64,000 bases of DNA from Planctomycetaceae bacterium. GTDB lineage: Bacteria > Planctomycetota > Planctomycetia > Pirellulales > Pirellulaceae. Positions 1,772-37,038 of this stretch are shown here, piece by piece; position 1 is the first letter of the stretch, and each line of letters starts with the position of its first letter. The translations under genes and the position numbers were made by a program. Below the pieces are notes generated by a model, which saw only the letters and a program-made list of their open reading frames with translations, made no database searches and was not told where the DNA came from. The stretch lies in the NCBI GenBank assembly GCA_016794985.1, contig JAEUIQ010000047.1, forward strand, positions 134,122-198,121, read 5' to 3'.

Positions 1772-2275
1772 CTACTTCTTCCCTTGGGCTCGCTTTTCTT
1801 GAAAAAAAGCGGTGAGAATTTGTCCACACTCTTCAGCCATTAGGCCTTCAATAACCTGACAGCGATGGTTGAGTCGTGAATCATTCAATAAGTGGTACAA
1901 CGAAGCAACGGCCCCCGCCTTGGGGTCATAGGCACCAAAAACAACGGTATCAAGACGAGCTTGCAAGATGGCGCCAGCGCACATTGGACAGGGCTCCAAC
2001 GTCACGTACAACGTGCAACCACTCAACCGCCAATCTTCGAGCGCCGCCGCCGCTTGCGTGATGGCCAAGATTTCCGCGTGTGCCGTTGGATCGTTCAACT
2101 GAACTTTTTGGTTATATGCCGCCGCGATGATTCTTTGTTGGGGACCAACAATGATTGCTCCCACAGGCACTTCATCCGCTTCATAGGCTAAGATCGCTTG
2201 CTGGATGGCTCGTCGCATGAACAACGGATGATCGACATCCTCGGGAGTTGATTCCATGATCAAGTCAAAACTCAC
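1772..2275 (-). CDS. tadA: tRNA-specific adenosine deaminase (CMP/dCMP-deaminase zinc-binding fold)
   Basis: HAEILAI … PCPMCAGAI zinc-binding deaminase signature. Size is ~167 aa, typical of TadA. Confidence 0.85.
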
Positions 2276-4842
2276 TTCCCGGGAATAACCAATTGGATCT
2301 TTTCGTAAGCCGCCGTGGTTTGGAAACAGAACAACCCTAACGGCTTCGAAAGATCCACATCTTGGCGAATCGAAAACTTATGGCCCGCCCGCGGTTGGTC
2401 GACGACTTGCTGTTCATCAATCCAGCATTGGATCTGTTCGCTCGAAACCTTGACACGGATGTCGTACCACTGATTCAACTCGAACTTATGCACGGTTCTG
2501 GTTGGGTTTCGTGCTGCATCCTTTTCATCAACGCTGGATAAACCCACGGTCATGCCACCCCAGCCACCGACAATAAACGAACAATAGTCTTCACCCACCG
2601 GAAAGGTTACCCCGCAGAACATATCGTTCCCATCAATCCGCTTGGCGCGAATTCGTAACTCATAATTGTCTCGGGGCATGTCTTGTATCCCGAGCGATTC
2701 GTTTCCGGCGTAAGAGATTCCGGTTAGCACTTGTCCCATTTCAAGAACGAGTGACTGATCCTCGATCAAAGCCTCTCCTTCGCCGCCGAACTTGGTCGGC
2801 TTCCAACCGGTAATGGTTTTCCCGTCAAACAGGTCGACGACTCGCTCCGGTTCGGTTGGCTTGACGGGGGTTGGCTCTTGCAAAGTGACTTCCGAAAATC
2901 CGATGGCTTTAATATCTGCGTGGTTGGCGACGGCACGAACCAAGAACCGGTTCGGCAGCGGTCCAATACTAGCCATCGGCAACACAAATCGACCACCGGC
3001 CGCAGAGACGACCGTCCGATGAAAGATCCGGTCGTTGGCTTGGGCGTAGTCGGCCGCCATCTGCTGAGAAAACGACTCGGATGATTCGTATTTTCGGCGA
3101 GCCTTTGGCTGAAAGGCTAATTGATCAAGTGGATAAGCCACTTCAACCTCGATGGCAAATGGCCCGCCCTTGCTGTTGGGCACATGACCCACCAGGTCCA
3201 ACTGCCCGTTCGAAACATCCGCAATCATTTCGATGGTTTCGAACTTTGGAAACCTCAATAGCGGATCACCAAAATACGTCATCATGTCCGCATGCTCCAG
3301 AATCTCTTGTTCCAAGATGTCTCTGGTCGGACTCAACCACCACGCGAGTTGATGCAGCACCTCACGATAGTCGATCTTTCGCGGTTCCTCATCGTCGAGA
3401 AATCCCCGCAGCCCAGCCTGGGAAGTGCTCAATCCAGCCTCCGGCACCGCGGCAGATCCCGATGCTGTTTCCAAACTGGCGTTGGCTGCGCGTCGAGCGT
3501 TTCGACGCTGGTGAGCGGCCAACACCATTCTTCGCTTCGCTTGCTGAAACCATGTGCCGACTTCCGCACACGACTCTTCGCCGTGCAGGGTCAATAACTC
3601 GAGTCCAAAATTCGCTAAACCGTAGGGGGCCGTCACTCCGGTGCCAGCCACAACCGAGACCGGTCCATTGGGGGCTCGCAACATCGTCTCGGCCAGACAA
3701 TCTTGCCGCATGTCGAATTGCCCCGTCGAGCAGGCCAACAACAATGCGATTGGTGAAGTGGCACTCGAAATTTGCTCCGAGTTGCCCGTCGTGATGGTGG
3801 GAACCACGCGATCTGGGAAATGAGCCGAATCCAAACAATTCCACGACCCATGCCCAATGTAGACCCAAAACAATGCCCCACGATTCAAACTTTCAAACAC
3901 CTTATCGCAATACTGGTCCGGCCCCGGACAATAAATACTCCGCCAACTCGCGTGGGTCATGCCGACCGTGAACTTCTTCGGTATCAATTCCGACAACATT
4001 CGTGTCGCCGTGGTCTCAATGACCTTATCTTCTAAAGCGCCAAAACCGCCGACCCCCGCCACGAACTCGATCCGTCGTTTTGCGAACTCGACATCCGGGT
4101 CAGTCTCGAAACGAATCGTTTTGTCGATCAAGATTTGTAGTTGTTCAGTATTCTGGACGGACCAGCGTCCAATAGCTAACTCCGGCGCTCCATCATCATC
4201 CAGGTCGGCGTACCAATGGTCACTGGGCACGCGGTCGCGTCCCCCAAATCGTTTGCTGACTTCCGAGGCCACGTAAGACGTGGGCAATCCGGATGCATCC
4301 ATGTTCAACAACGTTGGCACGTCACCAACCAACAACACAAACCGCAGACCCGTTGACCGCATTTGCTGCAACAGATCTTTGAGTTGCTGTGGGGCTTGAG
4401 GCGGTTCGACCAACCCGATTCGATAGCCTTGCTTGTTTCGATACTGCAACCAAGGTTCCAACGTTGCTTGCCAGGCCGGCGGACAAACCACTAAAGTGTC
4501 GTATGTCACTTTACTCGATTCGAGACTTTCCACTGACCAAGAGGCGGCCTCCATTGCGGACGTATCCATGGCATCCATTGCCGGTTGGTCACCTTGTTTA
4601 GCCAAATCCAACGGCAACTTTCCACGGATCTGTTCGGCTTCCGACAAGACAGCCACCGGCGGAACCGTGGAACCATTCCAAACAGGAATGTTCTGCTCGG
4701 GCATCGGTGGCGGTCCCAAATAGGGCACCACCACCAAAGGTCCCGCGGGCAGCCATCGCCACGTGATCCAGCCGGCCGCGACAACGAGAATCGCCAAGCA
4801 AACCCACAACCGCTTCCGAGTAAGGATGCGCGCGAATGACAT
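2272..4842 (-). CDS. membrane-anchored multidomain protein: N-terminal TM helix, central gingipain/C25-like cysteine-peptidase-like region, C-terminal beta-sandwich (DUF1080/LamG-like) domain
   Basis: N-terminus [18 protein letters not shown] is a TM/signal anchor. The central region contains the H…GHGSWNCLD arrangement reminiscent of the C25 His/Cys dyad. The C-terminus (GWKP…GEGEALIED…WYDIRVKV…) resembles a concanavalin-like jelly roll. 856 aa. A 4-nt overlap with tadA suggests an operon. Confidence 0.55.
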
Positions 4843-8473: not shown

Positions 8474-9439
8474 TTGCGACCGCCGGAACGATTATTCCAA
8501 ACAAAGTTCTGCGAGTTGACCGGGCTCATGCAAGACACCATCCAGCGATATCTGCGATACCTTAAAGTCGAACGCAACGCTTCAGATTATACGATCAAGT
8601 CGTACCGCGAAGACTTGCTGAGCTTATCCGATTATTTGACCGAAGCACTAGGCACTTCCCCGCATCCGGCCCGCATCGATCCGCAGATCCTGCGAAACTA
8701 CGTGGCCGCAATGCACGAGGCTCAATATGCCCGAACCAGTATCGCGCGGCGTCTTGCGTCGATGCGGGGGCTGTTCAAGTTTGCTCAACGCGAAGGCTTG
8801 GTCGAGCAGAATCCAGCCAAACCACTCCGTAATCCTCGCCCCCATCGTAAACTGCCCCACTTCTTGACGACCGACGAGATCCAGACACTGCTGGCAGCAC
8901 CCGCACAAGGCACGGTCATGGGCCTGCGTGATCGAGCGATCTTCGAGACGATGTACTCGGGTGGACTTCGCGTCAGCGAATTGGTGGGGATCAATGACAA
9001 CGATTTGGATTTGGAGGATGGACTGGTTCGCGTGAAAGGTAAAGGCAAACGCGAACGGTTGGCCCCGCTGGGCAAGTTTGCTGTGGAAGCTCTCGAAGAT
9101 TGGAAAGCAAAACGAGTGCTCGCACGTGGCAAACAGCCGACACCGACCACTCCGGTCTTCACAAACAAGTTTGGCAATCGCCTCACAACTCGCAGCGTCG
9201 CCAGGATGCTTGAAAAATACCTTTTGCAGACGGGGCTCAATCTGAAGACTTCCCCGCATACCTTGCGCCACAGCTTCGCAACACATCTCTTGGATCGCGG
9301 TGCGGATATCCGCAGCGTCCAGGAACTCCTGGGACACAAGAGTTTAGTCACGACGCAGATTTACACGCATCTCAGCACCGCCGGCCTGCGTCAAGCCTAC
9401 GAGCAAGCCCACCCGCGCGCCAAAGCCAAGTCCGGCTAG
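8474..9439 (+). CDS. xerC: tyrosine recombinase XerC/XerD family (the true start is probably the internal Met near 8530)
   Basis: N-terminal core-binding motif (IQRYLRYLKVERNASDYTIKSYREDL). C-terminal catalytic box LRHSFATHLLDRGADIRSVQELLGHKSLVTTQIYTH (R…HxxR…Y). Confidence 0.9.
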   Translation: MRPPERLFQTKFCELTGLMQDTIQRYLRYLKVERNASDYTIKSYREDLLSLSDYLTEALGTSPHPARIDPQILRNYVAAMHEAQYARTSIARRLASMRGLFKFAQREGLVEQNPAKPLRNPRPHRKLPHFLTTDEIQTLLAAPAQGTVMGLRDRAIFETMYSGGLRVSELVGINDNDLDLEDGLVRVKGKGKRERLAPLGKFAVEALEDWKAKRVLARGKQPTPTTPVFTNKFGNRLTTRSVARMLEKYLLQTGLNLKTSPHTLRHSFATHLLDRGADIRSVQELLGHKSLVTTQIYTHLSTAGLRQAYEQAHPRAKAKSG

Positions 9440-13542: not shown

Positions 13543-13597
13543 AAGCCAGGCAGAGAAGATTACAATGCGACTGAGTGTTGTGGACCGCAATGTCGCA

Positions 13598-13780
13598 AGC
13601 CGCTTCGTCGGTCAGATTCCGTTGTCGCGCAAAGAGAAAGTACAGTCACTGTAGAACTGGACCGAGGGAACCGTCCACGACGCGGTCGCCAACCGTTTCT
13701 TCGGTCAGATTCAAGTTCGCATGGCGAACGCGCAATCGAAGCACAAGATTCAATTCACAATCGAAGCACAAGATTCAAAT
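13598..13780. repeat. two copies of the 'tcggtcagattc…' module related to the 6755-6930 tandem repeat, plus a 2x tandem 21-bp repeat (caatcgaagcacaagattcaa) immediately upstream of the oleC start
   Basis: cgtcggtcagattccgttgtcgcgcaaagagaaag at 13606 and cttcggtcagattcaagttcgcatggcgaacgcgcaatcgaagcacaagattc at 13697. Tandem 21-mer at 13733-13778. Confidence 0.7.
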
Positions 13781-15532
13781 AAGGAGTTCCGGTTGCCGGA
13801 CTTTCAAAACTTCGAACGATTGGATGCGACGGGGTTGGTAAACGTCTCGCAACTACTTTCTCACGCGGCCAAACAGGTACCCGAGCATTTGGCAGTTGCC
13901 GTGGCGGGGCGTCACAGATCGACGACGAGCGCGGGACACCAACACGAAGGCAGAGAAAAACCTGCCCCGCCCGGCTGGCGCACGATCAGTTATCAGGAGC
14001 TGGATACGCTGGCGACGGACATAGCGCGCGGCCTCTTGGAGTTGGGCATCCCGCCCGGAACTCGGTTGGCATTGATGGTTCGTCCCGGGATCGAGTTCAT
14101 TGCGCTCGTGTTCGGCTTGATGCGAGCCGGAATGGTGCAAGTCTTGATTGATCCTGGCATGGGACGCCACAACATGGTGCAATGCTTGCAAGAATGCGAT
14201 CCACAAGGTTTTGTCGGAATTCCATTAGCGCATGTGATGCGATTGGTGTTTCGGCGAAAGTTTCCCGCTGCCATTTACAATGTCACCGTCGGTCGCCGTT
14301 ATGGATGGGGTGGTTGGACTTACCAGCAAGTCATTGCGAAGGGAAGACCATCGATTCGAGAAGTCAATCGGACCAGCGCTAGTCAACAAGCCGCGATCAT
14401 CTTTACCACTGGTAGTACCGGGCCGCCCAAAGGCGTTTACTACTCGCACGGAATGTTCATTCGACAAGCCACATTGATTCGCGACTTTTATTCGATCCAG
14501 CCCGGAGGCGTTGACTTGTCGGGTTTTCCCCTGTTTGCCCTATTCAATATTGGTATGGGCGTGACCACGGTGATTCCTCAAATGGATCCGACAAGGCCCG
14601 CGGCGGTCCAGCCGCAACGGATCATTGAAGCCGTCGAATTGTGGCGAGCGGACCAGAGCTTTGGTTCGCCAGCCTTATGGAACACGGTAAGCACCTATTG
14701 CGAGCGACGTCAGATCCAACTACCAAGCTTAAAGAAAGTCTTTTCTGCCGGAGCCCCCGTACCGCCACATGTCTTGCGACGCTTACAAAAAATGATTTCA
14801 ACAGATGGCGAAATCTACACCCCCTACGGGGCGACGGAATCGCTGCCGATCGCCTCCAATTCCGCGCGCACGATCTTGAACGAAACATCTGTTTTGTCAG
14901 CAAGTGGTCACGGGACGTGTGTCGGTAGTCGCTTTCCCGAAATCGATTGGAAAGTCATCGAAATCACGGACCTCCCGCTCGCAACCATGGAACAAGTCCG
15001 TGAATTGCCACGTGGCGAGATTGGCGAGTTGATGGTGTCTGGGCCGGTCGTCAGTCCCAAATACGTGACCCGCATGGATGCAAATGCCCTGCATAAGGTT
15101 GTGGATTCGGCAACCAACGCCGTCTGGCATCGAATGGGAGATGTGGGATACTTGGACGGACAGGACCGATTTTGGTTTTGTGGTCGAAAGGGTCACCGCG
15201 TCGTTACCGCGCGTGGAACGCTGTTTACGATTCCCATTGAAGCCATGATCAACAAGCACCCCGAGGTCTATCGCTCGGCCTTGGTTGGCATCGGTCCGGT
15301 GGGCGCACAAATTCCAGCCATGGTATTGGAACCTTGGCCGGAACATTGGTCATCGAATCGAGCGAGACAATCGCGATTGATTGACGAGGTGCGGCAGATC
15401 GCCGAGCAGGACCCGCGGTCGAAACAAATCCAGCACTATTTCGTGATGAAGTCTTTGCCAGTGGACATTCGCCACAACGCGAAGATTTTTCGCGAAAAAC
15501 TTGCGAAATGGGCCGCTTCGAAACTAAAGTAA
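13721..15532 (+). CDS. oleC: olefin beta-lactone synthetase OleC (AMP-dependent synthetase/ligase family). Likely true start is TTG at 13793, preceded by AAGGAG.
   Basis: AMP-binding motif IIFTTGSTGPPKGVYYSH. Multiple blocks (GIPLAHV, TVGRRYGWGG, YTPYGATE, HRMGDVGY, RFWFCGRK, VDIRHNAKIFREKLAKWA) match OleC as remembered from Xanthomonas/Stenotrophomonas. It is followed immediately by an OleD-like gene. Confidence 0.8.
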   Translation: MANAQSKHKIQFTIEAQDSNKEFRLPDFQNFERLDATGLVNVSQLLSHAAKQVPEHLAVAVAGRHRSTTSAGHQHEGREKPAPPGWRTISYQELDTLATDIARGLLELGIPPGTRLALMVRPGIEFIALVFGLMRAGMVQVLIDPGMGRHNMVQCLQECDPQGFVGIPLAHVMRLVFRRKFPAAIYNVTVGRRYGWGGWTYQQVIAKGRPSIREVNRTSASQQAAIIFTTGSTGPPKGVYYSHGMFIRQATLIRDFYSIQPGGVDLSGFPLFALFNIGMGVTTVIPQMDPTRPAAVQPQRIIEAVELWRADQSFGSPALWNTVSTYCERRQIQLPSLKKVFSAGAPVPPHVLRRLQKMISTDGEIYTPYGATESLPIASNSARTILNETSVLSASGHGTCVGSRFPEIDWKVIEITDLPLATMEQVRELPRGEIGELMVSGPVVSPKYVTRMDANALHKVVDSATNAVWHRMGDVGYLDGQDRFWFCGRKGHRVVTARGTLFTIPIEAMINKHPEVYRSALVGIGPVGAQIPAMVLEPWPEHWSSNRARQSRLIDEVRQIAEQDPRSKQIQHYFVMKSLPVDIRHNAKIFREKLAKWAASKLK

Positions 15533-16902
15533 CGCGCGGTGTTGAGAAGTTAATCGCGTTAGATGCCGAGACAGTCGATGGAGGATTCATGCAAGTATTG
15601 GTGACCGGCGGTGGAGGCTTCTTGGGCCGGGCTATCGTGCGACAACTTACCTATCGCGGCGAAAAAGTCCGCGTCTTGGGGCGAAGCTCCTATCCATTCT
15701 TGGATAAGCTGGGTGTCGAAGTGATCCAAGGTGACGTGCGTGACCCCGCGGTTGTGAATAACGCCTGTCGTGATGTGGAGTTGGTCTTTCATACGGCCGC
15801 GGTTGCCGGAATCTGGGGGCCCTGGGATCGTTACCACTCGATCAATACGGTGGGAACCAGAAACGTCATTGACGCCTGCATAGCGCAAGGCGTGCAGAGG
15901 CTGATTTACACAAGTTCGCCGAGTGTTGTTTTCACCGGTGCGGATCAAGAGAACGTGAACGAAACCGAGCCCTACCCACGCCGGTATCTGTGCCATTATC
16001 CGCATTCGAAGGCTTTGGCCGAGCAAGAAGTTTTGGACAGCCATGATCGCACTCGACTGTTGACCTGCGCCTTGCGACCGCACCTGATCTGGGGCCCAGG
16101 AGATCAACACTTGATTCCCCGCATGTTGGAGCGCGCTCGACTTGAAAAATTGAAACGCGTGGGCGAAGGCGAAAACAAAGTGGACATGATCTATGTGGAT
16201 AACGCGGCTGCCGCGCACTTGCAAGCAGCCGACGCGTTGACACCAACTTCACCCGTCGGCGGGCAAGCTTACTTTGTTAGCGAAGGCCAACCAGTTAATC
16301 TCTGGCTGTGGATCAATGAGATCTTGATGTTGGCCGGGCTTCCGCGTGTGCGACGTTCTGTTTCTTATTCCTCGGCTTACACGGTCGGACGAATTTTGGA
16401 AACCATGTACGAGTGGTTTGGTTGGCAAGACCACGAGCCAATCATGACCCGATTTCTGGCGTGTCAGCTTGCTCATCATCACTACTACGATGTCTCGAAG
16501 GCGCGGCGAGATTTCGGAATGCGCCCGATCGTTTCTTTCGAGGAAGGCATGGATCGATTGGGAAGGTTCTTGAGTGGAGAAACGGCCATCGCGGAGCAGA
16601 CGCTACCATGCAACCGCAGTCCCGAAGAAGTGGAACGCCAACGTCAGCGGCAGTTGAATTGGCGCGAGAATTATGGCAAGACCAAACCTAAGACAAGTGC
16701 CGCATCGTCCTACGACACGGACGACGATGACCACGACGATCCTGAAACCGACGACAATCTCTATGCCGACCCGGACGACGGACAACAGGATGACCATGAA
16801 CCCACGACGCCTGTCCGTGATCGCTTGGCGGACGGGATTGAATATGCCGACGATGACGACGAAAATGCCGACAAGCGACACAGTCCGCGTGGTCGTCGCT
16901 AA
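15508..16902 (+). CDS. oleD: 2-alkyl-3-oxoalkanoate reductase OleD (NAD(P)-dependent 3-beta-hydroxysteroid dehydrogenase/isomerase family) with ~130-aa poly-acidic C-terminal tail
   Basis: VLVTGGGGFLGRAIVRQL Rossmann motif, YxxSK (YPHSKALAE). 3b-HSD-like length is ~330 aa, then DTDDDDHDDPETDDNLYADPDDGQQDDHEPTT…ADDDDENAD. The gene overlaps oleC by 25 nt. Confidence 0.75.
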   Translation: MGRFETKVTRGVEKLIALDAETVDGGFMQVLVTGGGGFLGRAIVRQLTYRGEKVRVLGRSSYPFLDKLGVEVIQGDVRDPAVVNNACRDVELVFHTAAVAGIWGPWDRYHSINTVGTRNVIDACIAQGVQRLIYTSSPSVVFTGADQENVNETEPYPRRYLCHYPHSKALAEQEVLDSHDRTRLLTCALRPHLIWGPGDQHLIPRMLERARLEKLKRVGEGENKVDMIYVDNAAAAHLQAADALTPTSPVGGQAYFVSEGQPVNLWLWINEILMLAGLPRVRRSVSYSSAYTVGRILETMYEWFGWQDHEPIMTRFLACQLAHHHYYDVSKARRDFGMRPIVSFEEGMDRLGRFLSGETAIAEQTLPCNRSPEEVERQRQRQLNWRENYGKTKPKTSAASSYDTDDDDHDDPETDDNLYADPDDGQQDDHEPTTPVRDRLADGIEYADDDDENADKRHSPRGRR

Positions 16903-16923: not shown

Positions 16924-17520
16924 ATGATTTCGCGGGCCACGATCCAGGAAGGACCGAACATGATTTTATCCGGTGAAGAGATTGCGAGAAGACTTGGTGG
17001 CGATATCGGAATCGACCCTTACGACCCCGCTCATCTCAATCCCAACAGCTACAACTTGACTCTTCATCACGAATTGATGGTGTATGAAGAAGTGGTGTTG
17101 GACATGAAGAAACTGAATCGCGTGCAACGCTTGGAGATCCCGGACAGCGGACTGGTGTTGGAACCACGCCGACTGTATTTGGGTCGCACCATCGAACGCA
17201 CGGAAACCCATAACCTAGTGCCCATGATCGAGGGCCGATCGAGTGTCGGACGCTTGGGGCTGTTCGTGCACGTGACGGCGGGCTTCGGTGATGTCGGCTT
17301 CAAAGGCTTCTGGACCCTGGAGATGTTCGCGGTCCAGCCCGTGCGGATCTACGCAGGGGTATCGATTTGCCAGATTTTTTATCATGAAATCAAAGGCGCT
17401 TATGAAGAGTATCGCAGCGACAAGTATCAAAACAATCGCGATATTCAGCCCAGCCTTCTTTTTAAGGAGTTTTCGGACGAACACGATGTTGATCCACAAA
17501 TGCGTTTGAAATTCGACTAA
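16924..17520 (+). CDS. dcd: dCTP deaminase
   Basis: MILSGEEI…GIDPYDP…NPNSYNLTL… and the downstream dUTPase-like fold motifs. Confidence 0.9.
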   Translation: MISRATIQEGPNMILSGEEIARRLGGDIGIDPYDPAHLNPNSYNLTLHHELMVYEEVVLDMKKLNRVQRLEIPDSGLVLEPRRLYLGRTIERTETHNLVPMIEGRSSVGRLGLFVHVTAGFGDVGFKGFWTLEMFAVQPVRIYAGVSICQIFYHEIKGAYEEYRSDKYQNNRDIQPSLLFKEFSDEHDVDPQMRLKFD

Positions 17521-19581
<2,061 letters not shown>

Positions 19582-25257: not shown

Positions 25258-28200
25258 TTATTCTGGACTTCGGGGAGTCTCGGGATGTTCCTGTGGGACT
25301 TCGGGATCGTCGTATTTGGCGGCGATCATTTGTTTGTAGTGTGCTTCCGTGGCCTTTGCCGCACGTTGGAGTTCCCGTCCACCTTCGATTTTTTCGGCCA
25401 TTGCCAGTAGCGGTTCCATCCAGGCTTGGAGAATTTGGAATTGCCCGGTGATCACTTTCATAAACGCTGTCGGGACTCGGTTGGAAACATGAATCTTGAC
25501 TGGACGATCTTCTGTAACGGTCGCATCGGGCGCGCGACGATTTTCGAGCAGCGATTGCTTGATCTCTTGCAACGACTGATTGAATTTCTCCAATTGTTGA
25601 ACCGCTCCACCAATCTGTTGGATCGTCAGGTTTTGCATGACAGTCCGTTCCGGTGCGCTGGCGTACTCCAACCATCGTTCAACACCGTGCGTCAACGTCG
25701 AGCGAATTTGCCCGAGACCATCACTGAACAACGCCAATTGCGCAATGATCTGTGACGCCTGATCATCTCCGGCAGCCGCGGCACCCAAAACTTGGTTGCG
25801 ACGATAGGTTTCTCGAATACCATCCCACCTTAGCTTCGCCTCGCCCTGCAAGCGGCCCGTGATCTCTTTGAACTTGAGTAGGTTGGCTTCGGCGTCAGTG
25901 GTCAGCGTTTGGGCTTGGTTCTCGAAATGCGAATCAATCAAAACCTGCAATTCTTGATCATTCATGATCGGCACGATCTTTTCTGCGATTTTGGCCATAT
26001 CACGATAAGAGCCCTGCAGTTTGAATGCCGGTTCCGTGCGGTACGCATCCGCTTGTGCCGCCGAGTAGATATACAACTCATTGACCCGTAACAGCACGTC
26101 GCGGACTTTCAAGAGCTTCTGCATGACCTTGACCATCTCGTTCACTTGGCTGGAAGAGAAGTTCCCCTCCAACGCCGCGTGCGTTTGCCCGTTTTGCGCG
26201 GCCATTTCGATGATCGTATGGACATCTTTTTGGCTGGCACTTTGCAACGGAGCCAACGCCGAATTGGATGTCAAGCAATTTTCCAGATAGCTGAGCTCAA
26301 ATGCCTTGGCTTGATCGCCAATCACATCGCCCAAGTTGTACGTATCCGCTCGATTAGCCAACATATCCGGGATCTTGAACTTCTCGCCACTTTCCGTGTA
26401 CGGATTACCCGCCATGACGACGCAAACTTTCCGGCCACGCAAATCGTACGTCCGCGTCTCACCCTCGAAGACGCCTTCAATCTTTCGTTGTCCGTCGCAG
26501 AGCGAAATAAACTTCTGCAAGAACTCCGGATTGCAGTGCTGGATATCATCCAAATAAATCATCACGTTGTCGCCCATTTCCAACGCGAGATTCAGCTTCT
26601 CCACTTCCTGCCGGGCACTGGCATTGGGCGCTTCTTGCGGATCCAACGAGGTGACGTGATGACCAATCGCAGGGCCATTGATCTTCACAAAAGTGATGCC
26701 CAAGCGATTCGCGACGTATTCCATCAAGGTCGTCTTGCCATATCCCGGGGGCGAGATCAGTAATAGCAAACCCATGAGATCGGTACGTTTGTTTTCTCCA
26801 ACTTCACCCATTTGCTTCGCTAGGTTGGCACCAATCAACGGCAGGTAAACTTCATTGATGAGTCGGTTACGCACGAAGGACGTCAGCACACGGGTCTCAA
26901 ACTGGTAAAGCTTCAATTCCTTTCGTTTGCGGTCAAGCAAGTTCTTCTTGTCTTCGACGTAGCGATTGAATCTGGGGACCACCACGCTTTGAAATTTCAG
27001 CAGTCTCTCCAGATAGTCATAAAAGTCGAAGTGGTAGTGGGTGTTGTCGATCTGCGCATGGCTACCGATCATTCCATTGACCGTGACCTCAGGGTCACAG
27101 GCATGAGCATGCCCGATTTGGTCGCCAAGCAAATATACCAACGCCGCTTCCTGCACGAGCCGATACCGATCTGCAGCGACTTTTTGCTGGCGTTTCGCTG
27201 TATTTTGCGTTGATTCCACCGCTGCCGAGTCCGCTGGTTCGCGCGTCGCGATCAGCGTCGCCTCACTCAAGGTCTTGGTCGCTGCCTCAATCAAATTGGC
27301 CCCCGGATCCAAATGCACCAAGAGATGCTCCAAGACACCCGGTTGGTCGGCGAATGCGGTGATCCACAACTGAACCATTTCCAAGCGTGGGCGACTAGAT
27401 TTGAGTGCCTTTACAGCCGTATAAAACGCCTCGTTGGCACGTCGAGACTTCAAAAACTCGATGAACCCATCCAGTAAATGCTTGGCATCATTAGAACAAG
27501 GCAAGCGATCGCCGGTCGTCAGACATTCGTACAGATACTCGGCAGCGGATCTCGCCATCGCAGAATCGAATCCTTCCGACTCCCGAACCATTTGCGAAAT
27601 TGAATCGCTCAAACGCCTGAGCAGCGCCTCATTGGCTCGACTGTCCGGAAACAGAGTCCGCATCGCGCGAATTCCCTGCAGCTGAAACGTCACCTCAGCT
27701 TTGTCCAAGTTCGGCCACACTTGCCTCAACCAAAAGAACGTAGCCAGATTACGAACACTCGCCGGCTGTCGCAGGATTCCCAAAGCTTGATGTTTGTCTA
27801 GGATCACACGCAGGATCTTTGCGGTATCGTGATCGTGAACTCCCTTGAGGTAACTTTCATGATACCGAGGCGCCATGAAGAGTTGAACTTCACCGATCAT
27901 CTGTTGCTCGGTCATGGCATACCAGCGTTGAATTTCGCTGCGGTTGGTCAACAGTTGATCATAAAGCAGCTTGGCCAAGTACTCGCAACGATAGACCTCA
28001 CGATTCTCAGATACGACCTCTTGTGCCATGAGCTCGGGATCGAACTCCAGGTCTTGTGGTGGCACCGGGCGGAAATAGTTTGTACCGGACAAATGAAAGT
28101 ACAATCGACCGTCTTTTGTGACCGTCGTCAAATCCAACGCCTGAGAATTGGTCATGAATTTGTATTTGCCAAACTGAATGACCTTGCCCCCGTCGAGAAA

Positions 28201-30852
28201 CAATTCTTGGCGATCTTTGAGCTGCCGCACCGCGTCTTCGCGAATGGTCTTCAATTGACTTTGAACATCATCTACTTTGACGGACTCTTGCAGCGATTCC
28301 AACTCCTTGACGATGTCTCGAATCTTTTCGACCATCAAATCCGCTGCAAAATAAGCGTGTATCGCGTCGATCTTCTCCATCTGTGACACTCGGCTGCGAA
28401 TTCCACCCAAAATTCGTTCGGCAGCACTCATCAAAGCGCTGGCGCGACGATTACGGGCTTCCTGCAGTTGCAGCTTTTTGTTGTCAAATGCGGAGTAAAT
28501 CTCTTCTCGCTTCTCAGTTAGTTGCAGAACGAACTCGTCGAATTCCGCAAATCGTCCTTCCAGCTCTTCCAGCTGCACCATCGTCTTCGTCAAATAGTCG
28601 TCGCAGCGCTGGGGGGTATCGCAGACCTCAAGATAGTTGACCACCGATTGGCCCAACAGCTTAAGTTGCGAATGAAACTCGGCCTTCCCTTCGACGCTCA
28701 ACAACTGTTTCGTCGCATTTTTCAACTTGGCCCGCGTCTGATTCAACTGAGAATAAATCGCCGAAATGTCGTCGATGATCTTCGTACGTTGCGTAGCATC
28801 CTCGATTTTCAAATTGCTGATCACTTCGATCAGCATTTCCAAGTCCTTGCTAGTTCGTTCAATCTCGGCCTGAAGTGCGTTGGCCTCCGTCACTTTCGTC
28901 AATGCCTCGATGCCGGCGAATTGTTTCTCGACTCGTTGATGATAGGGCACCAACGCCTGTGGCTGCAGGAGAAACTCGACACTTTTCTGTGAACACGCTT
29001 CCGTCTCGGCTTGTACTTGCGATTCCAAGTTCTGAACTTGTTCGAGATCGATGTACTTCAAGTCCCGCAGGCCAATAATTTCGCCGCGTACGGAGCGCAA
29101 ATCCGACAATTGTTGTACAAAATCATCAATGGTCTGGAACATCTTTTGATAAGATTGGCGGAGGACGTCTTTGGTCCGATTGCTTACCGTATCAAATCGC
29201 TGTTTCGTTTCGCGCCGGGCTTGGGTCACTCTTTCAAATTCGTCGATCGCAGACGTCGCGACGCTGCGTATTTCACTGAGAACACCGGCGACATCGAAAG
29301 CCTCGCTTCGTCCCAGCCAGAAATACGAGTCGACGGTGTCGGTCGTTCGCTTGACCAAGTCGACGTAGAGGTTGGCGTAGTTGTCGTCTTTATTCAATAA
29401 ACTATGAATCTCATGGCACTCGGCCATGGCCCGCACCACATCGCGATTCCCAATCTTAAACAAAAAGGAATCCTGATTGCCCGTCGTAAGCCCAGGAAGC
29501 GTTAGCCCTTCCTTGAGAAACGGCGTCTGCCAAATTTGTAGCGAGTGATGCTTTTGGGGACTGGCGTCCGCTCTCACCAGCAACATTTTTCCATCATCAA
29601 AGAAGCAAAAGCCGCCGCAGGTGGTCGGCGTTCCAACGGCCTGTTGGATCATATTGTACGTCAACAACAAGTAAGCGCCAGACACACGATTGTAGAACAC
29701 ATACAAGTAATCTTCGCCGTTGGCCGCAGCCAGACGTTTTTCATACACCAAGTCCACTAACCCCGTTTCGAACAATTTGGACTCGCCGGTCTGTAGGTAA
29801 TAGCCGTTGCTGAAGATCAGTCCGTGATCCTCCGGCAAGAGAATACAGGCTTCCCGTATCGAATCCAATCGCATCGCTTTGGCGGTCTTCTCGTTGTAGA
29901 CCAAGTAGCGATAGTTCTGTTCGCGGAATGGTTTGATTCTCAGCAAAATCAAGTTACCAACAATCGCGTAAAATATCTCGGCATCATCCAACGTCTGATC
30001 GCGATCTTCCACGGGTTCGCTATAGATACCAACCCCATCTTCGGTGTTATCCTCGACCTTGATGGTCAGATCGCCGCCCACCGTTTCTACAAAGACACGG
30101 TCTTCGATCGAAATGTGCGGATGTTTGCCGCTGCGATGCAGATCACGGTGCGTACGCGTCCAACGGAACTCGTGCTGGGCCGGATACTTGACCTCATGAT
30201 CGCTGCGATTGTCGACGTAGCGAAGTCTATCGCCCTCCAAAAGCCACTTGAAGGATTTGACGTTTTTCGGATCATCACCGACTTGAAAGACAAAATACAA
30301 GAAGGCGCCGATTTGCTGAAACTTCGAAAAGCGGGTGCCTTTGTAATACTTGTAGAGCTGTCGAAAATCATTTTGAAATGCCGGATCGCCCAACAACTCC
30401 ACGCCGACCTGGGTCAGTTGTTCACCTTCCCGACGGTAAATCGAAAAGACATCCTCCAAGTGAGTCTCGTTCCGCAACCCCATTTGCACGTTGTAACCAA
30501 AAATCAATTGATCACCAACGGCCACCAAATCACGCGCCACACAGTTGTGTTCGGTCGTGATTCGCTGCGTTGAAAGCAGTTCGGTGGGAATCGAACCGAA
30601 CACGGCTTGACGCGACTCATTCAGTTTGGCCAATCGCTCTCGCAACAATTCCGCTTGTTGAGTCAAACGATTTCGCAGCACTTGGTAAGTGCCCTGATCC
30701 ATCGCCGGGAGGGAGGTGGCCCCACGATCGACGGTGGCTGGAGTCGCCTTGGATTTGTCGTCGGGCGTGCTCATGGGATGAAAGACCTTGGAAGGGATTC
30801 GCCAATCGCTGATGGAAGCGACCTGTGGCCGCAGCCACTCGGCCACGACCAC
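25258..30852 (-). CDS. giant (1864-aa) protein: N-terminal ~500-aa globular region, ~400-aa coiled-coil, central helical region, single MoxR/AAA_5-type AAA+ ATPase module near the C-terminus
   Basis: Walker A LLISPPGYGKTTL, Walker B VMIYLDDIQ, sensor-1 VVMAGNPYTE, R-finger region LANRADTYNLGD. Spacing matches MoxR/AAA_5. No other catalytic motifs. It is co-oriented 130 nt downstream of flotillin. Confidence 0.8.
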   Translation of the reverse strand: MVVAEWLRPQVASISDWRIPSKVFHPMSTPDDKSKATPATVDRGATSLPAMDQGTYQVLRNRLTQQAELLRERLAKLNESRQAVFGSIPTELLSTQRITTEHNCVARDLVAVGDQLIFGYNVQMGLRNETHLEDVFSIYRREGEQLTQVGVELLGDPAFQNDFRQLYKYYKGTRFSKFQQIGAFLYFVFQVGDDPKNVKSFKWLLEGDRLRYVDNRSDHEVKYPAQHEFRWTRTHRDLHRSGKHPHISIEDRVFVETVGGDLTIKVEDNTEDGVGIYSEPVEDRDQTLDDAEIFYAIVGNLILLRIKPFREQNYRYLVYNEKTAKAMRLDSIREACILLPEDHGLIFSNGYYLQTGESKLFETGLVDLVYEKRLAAANGEDYLYVFYNRVSGAYLLLTYNMIQQAVGTPTTCGGFCFFDDGKMLLVRADASPQKHHSLQIWQTPFLKEGLTLPGLTTGNQDSFLFKIGNRDVVRAMAECHEIHSLLNKDDNYANLYVDLVKRTTDTVDSYFWLGRSEAFDVAGVLSEIRSVATSAIDEFERVTQARRETKQRFDTVSNRTKDVLRQSYQKMFQTIDDFVQQLSDLRSVRGEIIGLRDLKYIDLEQVQNLESQVQAETEACSQKSVEFLLQPQALVPYHQRVEKQFAGIEALTKVTEANALQAEIERTSKDLEMLIEVISNLKIEDATQRTKIIDDISAIYSQLNQTRAKLKNATKQLLSVEGKAEFHSQLKLLGQSVVNYLEVCDTPQRCDDYLTKTMVQLEELEGRFAEFDEFVLQLTEKREEIYSAFDNKKLQLQEARNRRASALMSAAERILGGIRSRVSQMEKIDAIHAYFAADLMVEKIRDIVKELESLQESVKVDDVQSQLKTIREDAVRQLKDRQELFLDGGKVIQFGKYKFMTNSQALDLTTVTKDGRLYFHLSGTNYFRPVPPQDLEFDPELMAQEVVSENREVYRCEYLAKLLYDQLLTNRSEIQRWYAMTEQQMIGEVQLFMAPRYHESYLKGVHDHDTAKILRVILDKHQALGILRQPASVRNLATFFWLRQVWPNLDKAEVTFQLQGIRAMRTLFPDSRANEALLRRLSDSISQMVRESEGFDSAMARSAAEYLYECLTTGDRLPCSNDAKHLLDGFIEFLKSRRANEAFYTAVKALKSSRPRLEMVQLWITAFADQPGVLEHLLVHLDPGANLIEAATKTLSEATLIATREPADSAAVESTQNTAKRQQKVAADRYRLVQEAALVYLLGDQIGHAHACDPEVTVNGMIGSHAQIDNTHYHFDFYDYLERLLKFQSVVVPRFNRYVEDKKNLLDRKRKELKLYQFETRVLTSFVRNRLINEVYLPLIGANLAKQMGEVGENKRTDLMGLLLLISPPGYGKTTLMEYVANRLGITFVKINGPAIGHHVTSLDPQEAPNASARQEVEKLNLALEMGDNVMIYLDDIQHCNPEFLQKFISLCDGQRKIEGVFEGETRTYDLRGRKVCVVMAGNPYTESGEKFKIPDMLANRADTYNLGDVIGDQAKAFELSYLENCLTSNSALAPLQSASQKDVHTIIEMAAQNGQTHAALEGNFSSSQVNEMVKVMQKLLKVRDVLLRVNELYIYSAAQADAYRTEPAFKLQGSYRDMAKIAEKIVPIMNDQELQVLIDSHFENQAQTLTTDAEANLLKFKEITGRLQGEAKLRWDGIRETYRRNQVLGAAAAGDDQASQIIAQLALFSDGLGQIRSTLTHGVERWLEYASAPERTVMQNLTIQQIGGAVQQLEKFNQSLQEIKQSLLENRRAPDATVTEDRPVKIHVSNRVPTAFMKVITGQFQILQAWMEPLLAMAEKIEGGRELQRAAKATEAHYKQMIAAKYDDPEVPQEHPETPRSPE

Positions 30853-34942: not shown

Positions 34943-35999
34943 AGTTCGTCGCTTGCTCGCAGCAGTTCGAAAGCAACGATCCGCCATTAAGGAATCGAGC
35001 AGTCGCTTCTTGGACCCGTCGATTCTCCATGATCAACGAGTGGACCGCCGGAACGATCAGTCTCTGCGTCACACCCGGTAGTTCCGTTTCGGCAACCGAC
35101 ACAATCAAGTCACTGGGCGTCTGGACCATTGGGTTCCAGCGTCCCAACTTGGTGTCACCCGAGATAATCGCTACGGGGCATGGTGGGACAGCCAATCGAT
35201 CGGCAACCTCGTTCCACCTGCCGCCCAACTGCAGACCCGTTCGTCCTGTTATCAATTGAAAGACGCCCGTGTAGCCTAGGGCCCTAGCCATCGAAGAGCC
35301 TTGATTCGGCGGCGCCAACATGACCACTCGATCCAATCGTTCCAAATATCGTCGCGTCATCAACCCGCGTTGCCAGTCTCCAATCATGTTTCTGACGACG
35401 ATGTTTCCCAAGCTGTGCCCAACAAAACTGAGACGTGGTTGCCCAGGCAAATGCTTAATGACCGCAGACAGGGCGGCAGCGTGTCGCGCGATCGTTGCAC
35501 GAGAACTCGCATAGCGAAAGTCGACCACCATTGGCCAGCCATGCAGCGACAAGAAACGCCCTAAGCTTCGCAGCGAAGAGCTCGTGCGCATCAAACCATG
35601 AACCAACACAACCACGCGCTGCGATTCATTCTCAGGAATCTGCGCACGACTGTTGTGGTACGCCGTCAAACAACTACGAATATCTCCGCTCTTGATGCAG
35701 CGGTTTGTCGGTGAAAGCACCCGCCAATGCCGTGTCAGTTGGTTCTGCTGCAAGCGAAGGCCGAACCACCAGCGAAAATCCGTCCAAAATTGTTTTCCGC
35801 CCAGCGTCGGGAGCCCAATTCTCGCGAGGCTGCTGCGAGCAGGCGCTTTGCGAGCAGGTGATGTGCGAGCAGGCGTTGTGCGAGCTTCTGACTGGTTCAA
35901 GTTGATACCTCTCCAATTGGTCACCTCGAAATCGCAATCGACTGGAGTACAATCTGTCCGGCGATCCCAGTTAACGGACCATGATATGACAATTCGCAA
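34935..35999 (-). CDS. alpha/beta hydrolase (lipase/PGAP1-like, GHSLG nucleophile elbow); start codon uncertain
   Basis: VVVLVHGLMRTSSS (oxyanion region) and FVGHSLGNIVVR (GxSxG). The N-terminus is encoded by a 15-bp tandem repeat. Confidence 0.6.
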   Translation of the reverse strand: MRIVISWSVNWDRRTDCTPVDCDFEVTNWRGINLNQSEARTTPARTSPARKAPARSSLARIGLPTLGGKQFWTDFRWWFGLRLQQNQLTRHWRVLSPTNRCIKSGDIRSCLTAYHNSRAQIPENESQRVVVLVHGLMRTSSSLRSLGRFLSLHGWPMVVDFRYASSRATIARHAAALSAVIKHLPGQPRLSFVGHSLGNIVVRNMIGDWQRGLMTRRYLERLDRVVMLAPPNQGSSMARALGYTGVFQLITGRTGLQLGGRWNEVADRLAVPPCPVAIISGDTKLGRWNPMVQTPSDLIVSVAETELPGVTQRLIVPAVHSLIMENRRVQEATARFLNGGSLLSNCCEQATNSN

Positions 36000-37038
36000 T
36001 GTTCCAATAGTTCTTTGCTTGTTTCTGGCGACATTCTCGCCTCATTCTGCATCGTGCGCGCAACCCGATGATTCGACGGAATTGGCGGCGGCGTCGCTAG
36101 TCGAAAATGCTGTTTTCGCGGCCACCGATAGTTTGGATCTCTCCGGGTCGGAGACGGGTGACGCCGGAGCTTGCCTTGGTGGGTTGCGTTGGCAACCTGC
36201 CAAGTTTCAAGTCACACTGGAAAAGCCACAGCGAGGTTTCGGAAACTGGTTGGTTCGATTTCCTTCACCGAAGCCGATGGGCGATGCGACGATCGACCGG
36301 GTGGCCATGGAGTGGTACCAAGCCAAGAATGAAGATGGCGATCCGCTGGTTGCGCCCGCAATCGTGGTCGTGCATGAATCGGGCCGCAGTATGACCGTAG
36401 GCCGACTGATTGCCAAAGGTCTTTCGGGCATGGGCGTGCATGCCTTCCTGATTCAATTGCCGGGTTACGGGCAACGTGGAAAACTACCCGAAGCAGACCC
36501 TCGCAAACTCCTTGACGTTCTACAACAAGCCGTTGCGGACGTTCGCCGTGCACGAGATGCGGTCGCGATTCTGCCGCTGATCAATAACAGGCGAATTGGT
36601 TTGCAAGGGACAAGCTTGGGCGGGTTCGTGACGGCCGCCGTCTGTGGCCTTGACCACGGTTATGATTGCCAGTTTGTATTCTTGGCCGGTGGCAACTTGC
36701 ACGATGTTGTGCTCAAAGGTCAGCGGGACGCTGCCAAGATACGGGAGAAGCTTCAAGCGGCTGGATTGTCGGACGACGAGATTATGGCGTTGGCGAATCC
36801 GATTGAGCCACTCCGCATCGCTCATCGCGTGCGTTCCGAAACGACTTGGCTTTACTCCGGGACCAAGGATGACGTCGTGCCGCCGAGCTGTTCCCATGCT
36901 TGGGCTGCGGCTGCCAAGTTATCGGATTCGCACCACATTCAGATGCCGGTTGATCACTACTCCGGTGTGTTGTACTTGCCGAAAATCCTTGGTGAAATTC
37001 GCGAGATCATGCTTGCGGTGCCCCAGGCCGACGAATAA
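35986..37038 (+). CDS. secreted alpha/beta hydrolase (dienelactone hydrolase/peptidase S9-like). The ORF-track start at 35653 is probably too far upstream; the signal peptide begins at Met 35986.
   Basis: MTIRNVPIVLCLFLATFSPHSASCAQ signal peptide, GLQGTSLGGFV nucleophile elbow, downstream Asp/His candidates (…DDVVPP…HHIQMPVDH). Confidence 0.65.
   Translation: MTIRNVPIVLCLFLATFSPHSASCAQPDDSTELAAASLVENAVFAATDSLDLSGSETGDAGACLGGLRWQPAKFQVTLEKPQRGFGNWLVRFPSPKPMGDATIDRVAMEWYQAKNEDGDPLVAPAIVVVHESGRSMTVGRLIAKGLSGMGVHAFLIQLPGYGQRGKLPEADPRKLLDVLQQAVADVRRARDAVAILPLINNRRIGLQGTSLGGFVTAAVCGLDHGYDCQFVFLAGGNLHDVVLKGQRDAAKIREKLQAAGLSDDEIMALANPIEPLRIAHRVRSETTWLYSGTKDDVVPPSCSHAWAAAAKLSDSHHIQMPVDHYSGVLYLPKILGEIREIMLAVPQADE

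Follow-up and report, generated by a model that had tools for sequence, protein, structure and literature searches.

The window analyzed here is a 64,000-nucleotide (nt) stretch of the genome of a Planctomycetaceae bacterium (GCA_016794985.1, contig JAEUIQ010000047.1, positions 134,122 to 198,121). On its forward strand it carries an AMP-binding open reading frame (ORF) at 13721-15532 (603 amino acids, aa) followed by a 3β-hydroxysteroid dehydrogenase (3β-HSD)/extended short-chain dehydrogenase/reductase (SDR) ORF at 15508-16902 (464 aa), both counted as longest ORFs. As judged by family models and conserved motifs, both genes are true relatives of late enzymes of the Ole olefin pathway, and we refer to them as oleC and oleD; the product of oleD also bears an acidic C-terminal tail. 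The pair probably represents one half (oleC-oleD) of an Ole, or head-to-head olefin, pathway whose genes are dispersed in the genome of this Pirellulales-type planctomycete.

The ligase matches the Pfam family AMP-binding (PF00501) with 164 bits and passes the NCBIfam model PRK09274 with 654 bits against a cut-off of 478. Since NCBI applies the name PRK09274 to LstC-like ligases as well, which are encoded in two actinobacterial plasmid clusters with a lipstatin gene layout, we take this model to describe a broad β-lactone synthetase family. On the two olefin β-lactone synthetase models the protein reaches 554 bits (OleC-Xan) and 481 bits (OleC-Shew), while all other ligase models stay at or below 149 bits. 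These scores, together with the presence of the C-terminal block VDIRHNAKIFREKLAKWA, bear out the OleC similarity proposed in the sequence-only reading (an earlier annotation made without database searches) and place generic ligases and acyl-CoA synthetases well behind as best matches. The block is invariant among planctomycete OleC-like proteins and the LstC-like ligases of the two plasmid clusters, and the motif PVDIRHNAKIFREKL..WA is invariant over planctomycete, OleC-type and LstC-type sequences. In alignment A1, the adenylation motifs TTGSTGPPKG, YGATE, WHRMGDVGY and FWFCGRK are invariant as well, together with K588 in RHNAKI. Among solved structures there is no close OleC, and the best sequence relatives are acyl-CoA ligases at about 70 bits. 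We assign the ligase as an OleC homologue with intact adenylation motifs and predicted β-lactone synthetase chemistry. The protein is strongly basic (net charge +16, isoelectric point (pI) 9.66), as are its planctomycete homologues (mean pI about 9.0-9.2). It has a clade-specific segment at its N-terminus as well as an insertion, RSTTSAGHQHEGREKPAPPG (aa 64-85 in long-ORF numbering).

The reductase matches Pfam 3Beta_HSD with 204 bits and two NCBIfam 2-alkyl-3-oxoalkanoate reductase models with 390 and 376 bits, against 144 bits for the next family, HpnA, in agreement with the initial proposal of a 3β-HSD-family reductase with the OleD fold. The expected OleD motifs are kept: TGGGGFLG (within VTGGGGFLG), Arg32, TSSPS, and Y137-PHS-K141 (YPHSK). 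An AlphaFold2 (AF2) model of the core has a predicted local distance difference test (pLDDT) score above 90, and its fold matches are extended SDRs and sugar epimerases. No close OleD is found among solved structures, where the best sequence relative is NSDHL, with 143 bits. The reductase is, on this evidence, an OleD homologue of the extended SDR type and a predicted 2-alkyl-3-oxoalkanoate reductase.

Both genes most likely begin downstream of their longest-ORF starts. The deposited protein identical to OleD (P0001) has 437 aa, all oleD homologues open with M-x-x-LVTGGGGF, and the OleD profiles start matching at that residue. The predicted start of oleD is ATG 15589, which leaves a true oleC-oleD gap of 56 nt. 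The 25-nt overlap reported before is an artefact of the longest ORF, because the Shine-Dalgarno site and all homologues place the start at 15589. For oleC, TTG 13793 is most likely the start and agrees with the deposited identical protein (P0121, 579 aa). The 72 nt between the long-ORF ATG and this TTG hold two 21-nt repeats that are mutually out of frame, an arrangement in keeping with non-coding DNA.

Table 1. Features of the oleC-oleD locus, and gene layouts and modules at related loci (locus handles L001 to L098). Positions are those of the window or, where a handle is given, of that locus.
Feature	Position or loci	Strand	Details and basis
Two perfect 21-nt direct repeats, CAATCGAAGCACAAGATTCAA	13733-13753, 13758-13778	+	25 nt start to start, just 5' of the oleC start
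Shine-Dalgarno-like AAGGAG	13781-13786	+	6 nt 5' of the oleC TTG; direct sequence reading
oleC homologue (β-lactone synthetase family, ANL superfamily)	13793-15532	+	579 aa from TTG 13793; longest ORF from ATG 13721
Shine-Dalgarno GGAGGA	15580-15585	+	3 nt 5' of the oleD ATG; direct sequence reading
oleD catalytic extended-SDR core	15589-16584	+	aa 1-332 of the 437-aa protein; 3Beta_HSD and OleD models, motifs, AF2
OleD tail, part 1	16585-16683	+	aa 333-365, AIAEQTLPCNRSPEEVERQRQRQLNWRE..., structured, mixed charge, near-neutral (net +1)
OleD tail, part 2	16684-16872	+	aa 366-428, acidic, predicted disordered; semi-conserved motifs LY(A/E)D and RDRLADGIEYADD
OleD tail, part 3	16873-16902	+	aa 429-437, basic end KRHSPRGRR and stop codon
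Classical oleA-oleB-oleC-oleD array	L056, L061, L062, L066, L067, L073, L079, L080, L087, L091		
oleB-oleC-oleD without oleA	L078, L085		
oleC-oleD only, or oleC alone	many loci		despite 4-10 kb of flank
FabF/ACP/amine-oxidase module	L001 11111-17984; L002/L098 11087-14150; L023 14449-20517; L056 5911-9105; L073 6847-13336; L087 1376-7915		

Neither a thiolase/OleA nor an OleB-type hydrolase was found in the whole window when every large ORF was searched with Pfam, and a tblastn search of the 64 kb with six OleA and seven OleB seeds from complete ole loci gave a best E-value of 0.12. The only α/β-fold protein is an S9 peptidase-like ORF at 35653-37038. These searches therefore indicate that oleA and oleB are missing over 13.7 kb upstream and 47 kb downstream of the pair, and the absence first noted within 10 kb extends to the entire window. 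The survey of gene layouts covered several genome loci and 80 metagenomic loci whose OleC relatives show 41-57% identity (Table 1). Loci that carry oleA are basal in a neighbour-joining OleC tree, and the window, a Mariniblastus sp. locus (L006) and L004 fall inside a large derived clade. No locus of this clade has oleA or oleB within 10 kb; oleC is either solitary or beside oleD. The clade is planctomycete, with flanks that hold mch/ATP-grasp (tetrahydromethanopterin) or PSCyt/PSD1 genes, and includes Anatilimnocola floriformis and Pirellulaceae metagenome-assembled genomes (MAGs). OleC and OleD matches occur together on seven common contigs (287934, 10042, 12090, 7425, 20307, 6918 and 10890 bp), so that the oleC-oleD pairing appears conserved in the close relatives of the window, and the two genes are also adjacent in L006 and L011. 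We therefore find that an oleC-oleD pair without nearby oleA or oleB is the normal arrangement for planctomycetes, and that the tail is the one unusual feature of the locus.

The complementary arrangement was also observed. A profile search built on seven OleA sequences gave its best 120 matches in Desulfobulbaceae, Nitrospirae, Gemmatimonadetes and Phycisphaerae. At L095 (10001-11921), from a Phycisphaerae MAG, oleA is followed 5 nt on by a gene for an OleB-like hydrolase, with neither oleC nor oleD within 10 kb. A second assembly (L096, 10001-12389) likewise carries oleA and an OleB-like hydrolase gene, and here too oleC and oleD are absent within 10 kb. In family checks of both loci the thiolases match PRK09258 with 442-445 bits, and the hydrolases match a haloalkane-dehalogenase-like family with 172-178 bits, as does OleB of complete clusters. 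These oleA-oleB pairs mirror the window's oleCD-only pair, and a split into oleAB and oleCD thus occurs in Planctomycetota. We note two variations in the space around oleD at other loci: a gene for a protein of 453-468 aa, with GYF_2 as its N-terminal domain, separates oleC from oleD at the planctomycete loci L023 (11814-13220) and L027 (11841-13202), and at L011 an unannotated ORF of 394 aa overlaps oleD at its end.

A second recurring association concerns a module that encodes a FabF-like ketosynthase (KS), an acyl carrier protein (ACP), two amine-oxidase/phytoene-desaturase-like flavoenzymes, a FabA-like dehydratase and a FabG-like reductase. The module adjoins planctomycete oleD (L001, L002, L098) or oleC-x-oleD (L023, L025, L027), and it also adjoins complete oleABCD arrays (L056, L062, L067, L073 and the Desulfobulbaceae-like L087). 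Such linkage speaks for a role of planctomycete OleC and OleD in the olefin pathway. The same module lies beside ole genes at L081 as well. Rattray et al. (2009) described such a cluster type in Kuenenia and Desulfotalea psychrophila (PMC2649909); D. psychrophila, which has no Pfa synthase, contains C31:8 and C31:9 hydrocarbons, and the cluster was proposed as a new route to polyunsaturated fatty acids (PMC2649909). In both Telmatocola and Zavarzinella the dominant neutral lipid is C31:9, which is also tabulated for Gemmata and was found in numerous further planctomycetes (PMC3327967), and planctomycetes are listed among the olefin-producing phyla that bear ole clusters (PMC7158056).

The tail of OleD spans 105 aa (aa 333-437, window 16585-16902) and not the ~130 aa first estimated; about 50 of these residues are strongly acidic, with a helical segment before them and a basic end after them. 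P0002-P0014 and the Mariniblastus locus L006 share the first part as a conserved element, and AF2 models it with helices at 332-336 and 345-362 (pLDDT 87-91). Further along, residues 379-428 contain 46% D+E with a net charge of -21, pLDDT drops below 50 for 374-432, and the two motifs listed in Table 1 are semi-conserved in the nine closest homologues, P0002-P0009 among them; the net charge of the acidic disordered tail region is -15. K/R-rich ends resembling the third part are found in P0002-P0004, P0007, P0010 and P0015. Across 15 tailed homologues the tail varies in length from 54 to 248 aa and in net charge from -14 to -26. Its charge is conserved and its sequence is not, as would be expected if an acidic disordered region were under selection. 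The conservation in orthologues for which a check had been suggested thus holds for net charge in the tailed homologues, but neither for sequence nor for most homologues, which have no tail. OleD of the complete ole loci compared (L056, L087), like that of most planctomycete homologues, ends at about 330 aa, and the tail is not a feature of OleD at these loci. An exhaustive search of 1.84 billion representative proteins revealed no tail homologues outside this OleD clade. One candidate relative, P0369, was rejected as a weak repeated-motif resemblance in a single repetitive giant protein. From these comparisons, the tail is real, lineage-specific and confined to a narrow clade, and not an artefact. 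As putative roles, the sequence-only reading named complex assembly and metal binding. We speculate that its action is electrostatic, for instance as a tether for the very basic OleC in an OleBCD-type assembly, or that it keeps the enzyme soluble. The tether is a reasonable guess because OleC is so basic and because OleB, OleC and OleD of Xanthomonas form a large assembly, according to work cited in PMC6463001.

Within the proposed pathway, OleD, as an NADPH-type extended SDR, would reduce the 2-alkyl-3-ketoalkanoic acid made by the OleA thiolase to the 3-hydroxy acid. OleC would then adenylate the carboxylate with ATP and close the β-lactone, from which OleB, a hydrolase-fold decarboxylase encoded elsewhere, would free the cis-olefin. 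The product in planctomycetes is most likely a polyunsaturated C31 hydrocarbon (C31:9). We infer both this substrate and this product for the organism studied here, along with the presence of oleA and oleB elsewhere in its genome. The split cluster put forward in the sequence-only reading accordingly stands as far as the 64 kb and the lone oleA-oleB pairs of L095 and L096 reach, while its genome-wide part belongs to what we infer.

Several observations weigh against a dispersed olefin pathway. No thiolase or OleB-type hydrolase is encoded in the window, which also lacks the FabF/ACP/amine-oxidase module. The genes that flank the pair (for a DUF1570 protein, dcd and ligA) are unrelated housekeeping genes, and the sources of the lone oleA-oleB pairs, a Phycisphaerae MAG and a second assembly, are not of the order to which the window belongs. 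As to the tail, mean net charges of OleC are the same in lineages with and without the tail (+9.4 and +8.8), and no covariation therefore backs a contact between OleC and the tail. Finally, both proteins score below the curated NCBIfam equivalog cut-offs (554 against 900 and 481 against 850 bits for OleC; 390 and 376 against 580 bits for OleD). However, control proteins from complete oleA-oleB-oleC-oleD loci miss the same cut-offs, with 618 (L056) and 556 bits (L087) for OleC, and 375 and 385 bits, respectively, for OleD. Consequently, the cut-offs appear lineage-specific and the failure of the window proteins is uninformative, and we dropped the equivalog cut-offs as a membership test.

The strongest competing explanation, which we nevertheless regard as doubtful, is that the OleCD pair works without OleB or a canonical OleA. 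The end product would then be a β-lactone or a 2-alkyl-3-hydroxy acid lipid, or the 3-keto acid would come from another condensing enzyme, such as the FabF-like KS frequently encoded beside planctomycete oleD. Clusters of oleACD without oleB do yield β-lactones in actinobacteria (PMC7064751), and the lack of oleA and oleB, both in the 64 kb and within 10 kb of any planctomycete-clade oleC, is in line with such a pathway. KS and ACP genes directly follow oleD in several planctomycetes; however, the same KS-ACP module is also found beside complete oleABCD, and hence looks like a precursor supplier rather than a replacement for OleA. Also against this alternative, the genes of a pathway are commonly scattered in planctomycete genomes, and lone oleA-oleB pairs occur in the Phycisphaerae MAG L095 and the second assembly L096. 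In addition, the C31:9 hydrocarbon is known in planctomycetes (PMC3327967).

We consider improbable a broader version in which the whole planctomycete clade of oleC or oleC-oleD has dispensed with canonical OleA and OleB and uses 3-keto or 3-hydroxy acids from the FabF/ACP/desaturase-like system for β-lactones or other lipids, the Mariniblastus-like acidic tail serving as a scaffold that recruits the basic OleC in place of an OleB-centred OleBCD assembly. Very little speaks for two unrelated neighbours without Ole chemistry, that is, a generic long-chain fatty-acyl-CoA/AMP ligase whose gene adjoins that of a sugar-nucleotide epimerase or of a 3β-HSD of the sterol type. The deposited entries do bear generic names ("AMP-binding protein" for the ligase and "NAD-dependent epimerase/dehydratase family protein" for the reductase), the acyl-CoA ligases and NSDHL mentioned above rank first among solved-structure relatives, and the fold matches are sugar epimerases, but the OleC and OleD models score three- to four-fold above all other families over the full length, the OleC-specific C-terminal motif is present, and the pairing is kept in several lineages; moreover, the LstC- and LstD-like proteins in the two lipstatin-layout plasmid clusters bear generic names too. 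We give next to no credence to the idea that the tail is not a real protein segment and reflects read-through from a frameshift, an assembly error or a lost stop codon, since, although most homologues stop near residue 330 and the acidic part is of low complexity, the three-part layout, the conserved motifs and the charge of -14 to -26 recur in at least 14 sequences that are independent and stem from different samples, and the first 30 tail residues are modeled with a pLDDT of about 90. A dispersed Ole pathway thus remains the reading that we prefer.

Upstream of oleC, the 21-nt repeat CAATCGAAGCACAAGATTCAA is unique in the window, with zero matches expected by chance, and may be a candidate regulatory site, for instance the binding site of a regulator. 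No such repeats occur upstream of oleC in the Mariniblastus locus L006, and an Rfam search of the oleC upstream region was empty. Promoter and terminator scans upstream of oleC gave results at or near chance level. Farther upstream lies another repeat pair of 28 nt with 86% identity (13592-13619 and 13685-13712, 93 nt apart).

The GC content is even across oleC-oleD, at about 0.54. On the upstream side a gene for a DUF1570 protein precedes oleC, and a sodium:dicarboxylate symporter gene occupies the opposite strand; on the downstream side, oleD is followed by dcd (16924-17520) and the NAD-dependent ligase gene ligA (17539-19581). The start of dcd is probably the second ATG, at 16960, as the Pfam match begins at residue 14 and GAAGGA lies upstream. 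Planctomycete signature families identified with Pfam in the window include PSCyt1/PSCyt2/PSD1, DUF1501 and DUF1570. The closest named relative, the Mariniblastus sp. MAG contig L006, has the identical oleC-oleD-dcd order, with identities of 65% for OleC, 73% for OleD over 355 aligned residues, and 83% for Dcd, and a scan of genome contigs with OleC returned Mariniblastus sp. as the one true relative. Synteny of oleD with dcd (dCTP deaminase) is kept in several planctomycete lineages (L004, L005, L006, L097), and a functional link between the two is not obvious.

Elsewhere in the window, a gene for a XerC/XerD-type tyrosine recombinase (8474-9439, forward strand) lies about 4 kb 5' of oleC, with no other sign of a mobile element and with even GC. 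On the reverse strand, a giant ORF of 1864 aa (25258-30852) contains DUF3686 (611 bits; "ATPase involved in DNA repair") together with DUF7902 and an AAA domain. An outer-membrane efflux protein (OEP) gene precedes it, and two ORFs without Pfam matches, of 678 and 220 aa, follow it. Also on the reverse strand, 2272-4842 encodes an 856-aa protein that combines Peptidase_C25 (gingipain-like) with a C-terminal 3-keto-disaccharide hydrolase domain.

These findings bear on how olefin production is predicted from genomes. In metagenome surveys, oleC has been used as a stand-alone marker of olefin production, with many matches in Planctomycetota (PMC10176705, PMC13170169). A single-gene marker of this kind cannot prove a complete pathway. 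Searches based on clusters will miss planctomycete ole genes, which are normally scattered (e.g., oleCD with a separate oleAB), and curated equivalog cut-offs overlook whole lineages. The recurrent linkage of ole genes with the KS-ACP module offers a testable route to the supply of C31:9 precursors and merits a dedicated study. The acidic tail is a small lineage-specific curiosity that might serve as a probe of Ole enzyme assembly.

Comparison with known systems separates the pair from several relatives. NSDHL/3β-hydroxysteroid dehydrogenase and HpnA-type SDRs have the same fold as OleD of the window, with NSDHL as its best solved-structure relative (143 bits); however, OleD scores 144 bits on HpnA against 390 bits on the OleD model, and no sterol or hopanoid genes accompany it. 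LstC/LstD and NltC/NltD, of lipstatin and nocardiolactone biosynthesis in actinobacteria, belong to the same two families and by analogy would share the chemistry up to the β-lactone, in clusters without oleB. The ligase of the window is 36-39% identical to plasmid-borne LstC-like proteins, which our tree places outside the OleC clade of the window protein. LstC/LstD-type pairs, in contrast to the pair described here, sit in clusters with LstA/LstB thiolases, a nonribosomal peptide synthetase and a formyltransferase. In the gene sets associated with C31:8 and C31:9 in Desulfotalea psychrophila and planctomycetes, orthologous oleC/oleD of other planctomycetes, and complete oleABCD at Desulfobulbaceae-like loci, adjoin the module, whereas oleCD of the window instead lies between the DUF1570 gene and dcd-ligA.

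Relative to the Ole systems of Xanthomonas campestris, Stenotrophomonas maltophilia and Shewanella, the window proteins score under the lineage-specific cut-offs, oleA and oleB are not adjacent, OleC contains the extra N-terminal segment and the insertion, and OleD carries the 105-aa tail. Despite these differences, the OleC and OleD proteins of these bacteria belong to the same families as those of the window, with NCBIfam model matches over the full length and with common motifs in OleC (PVDIRHNAKIxREKL) and OleD (TGxxGxxG/YxxxK), and in each case oleC directly precedes oleD.

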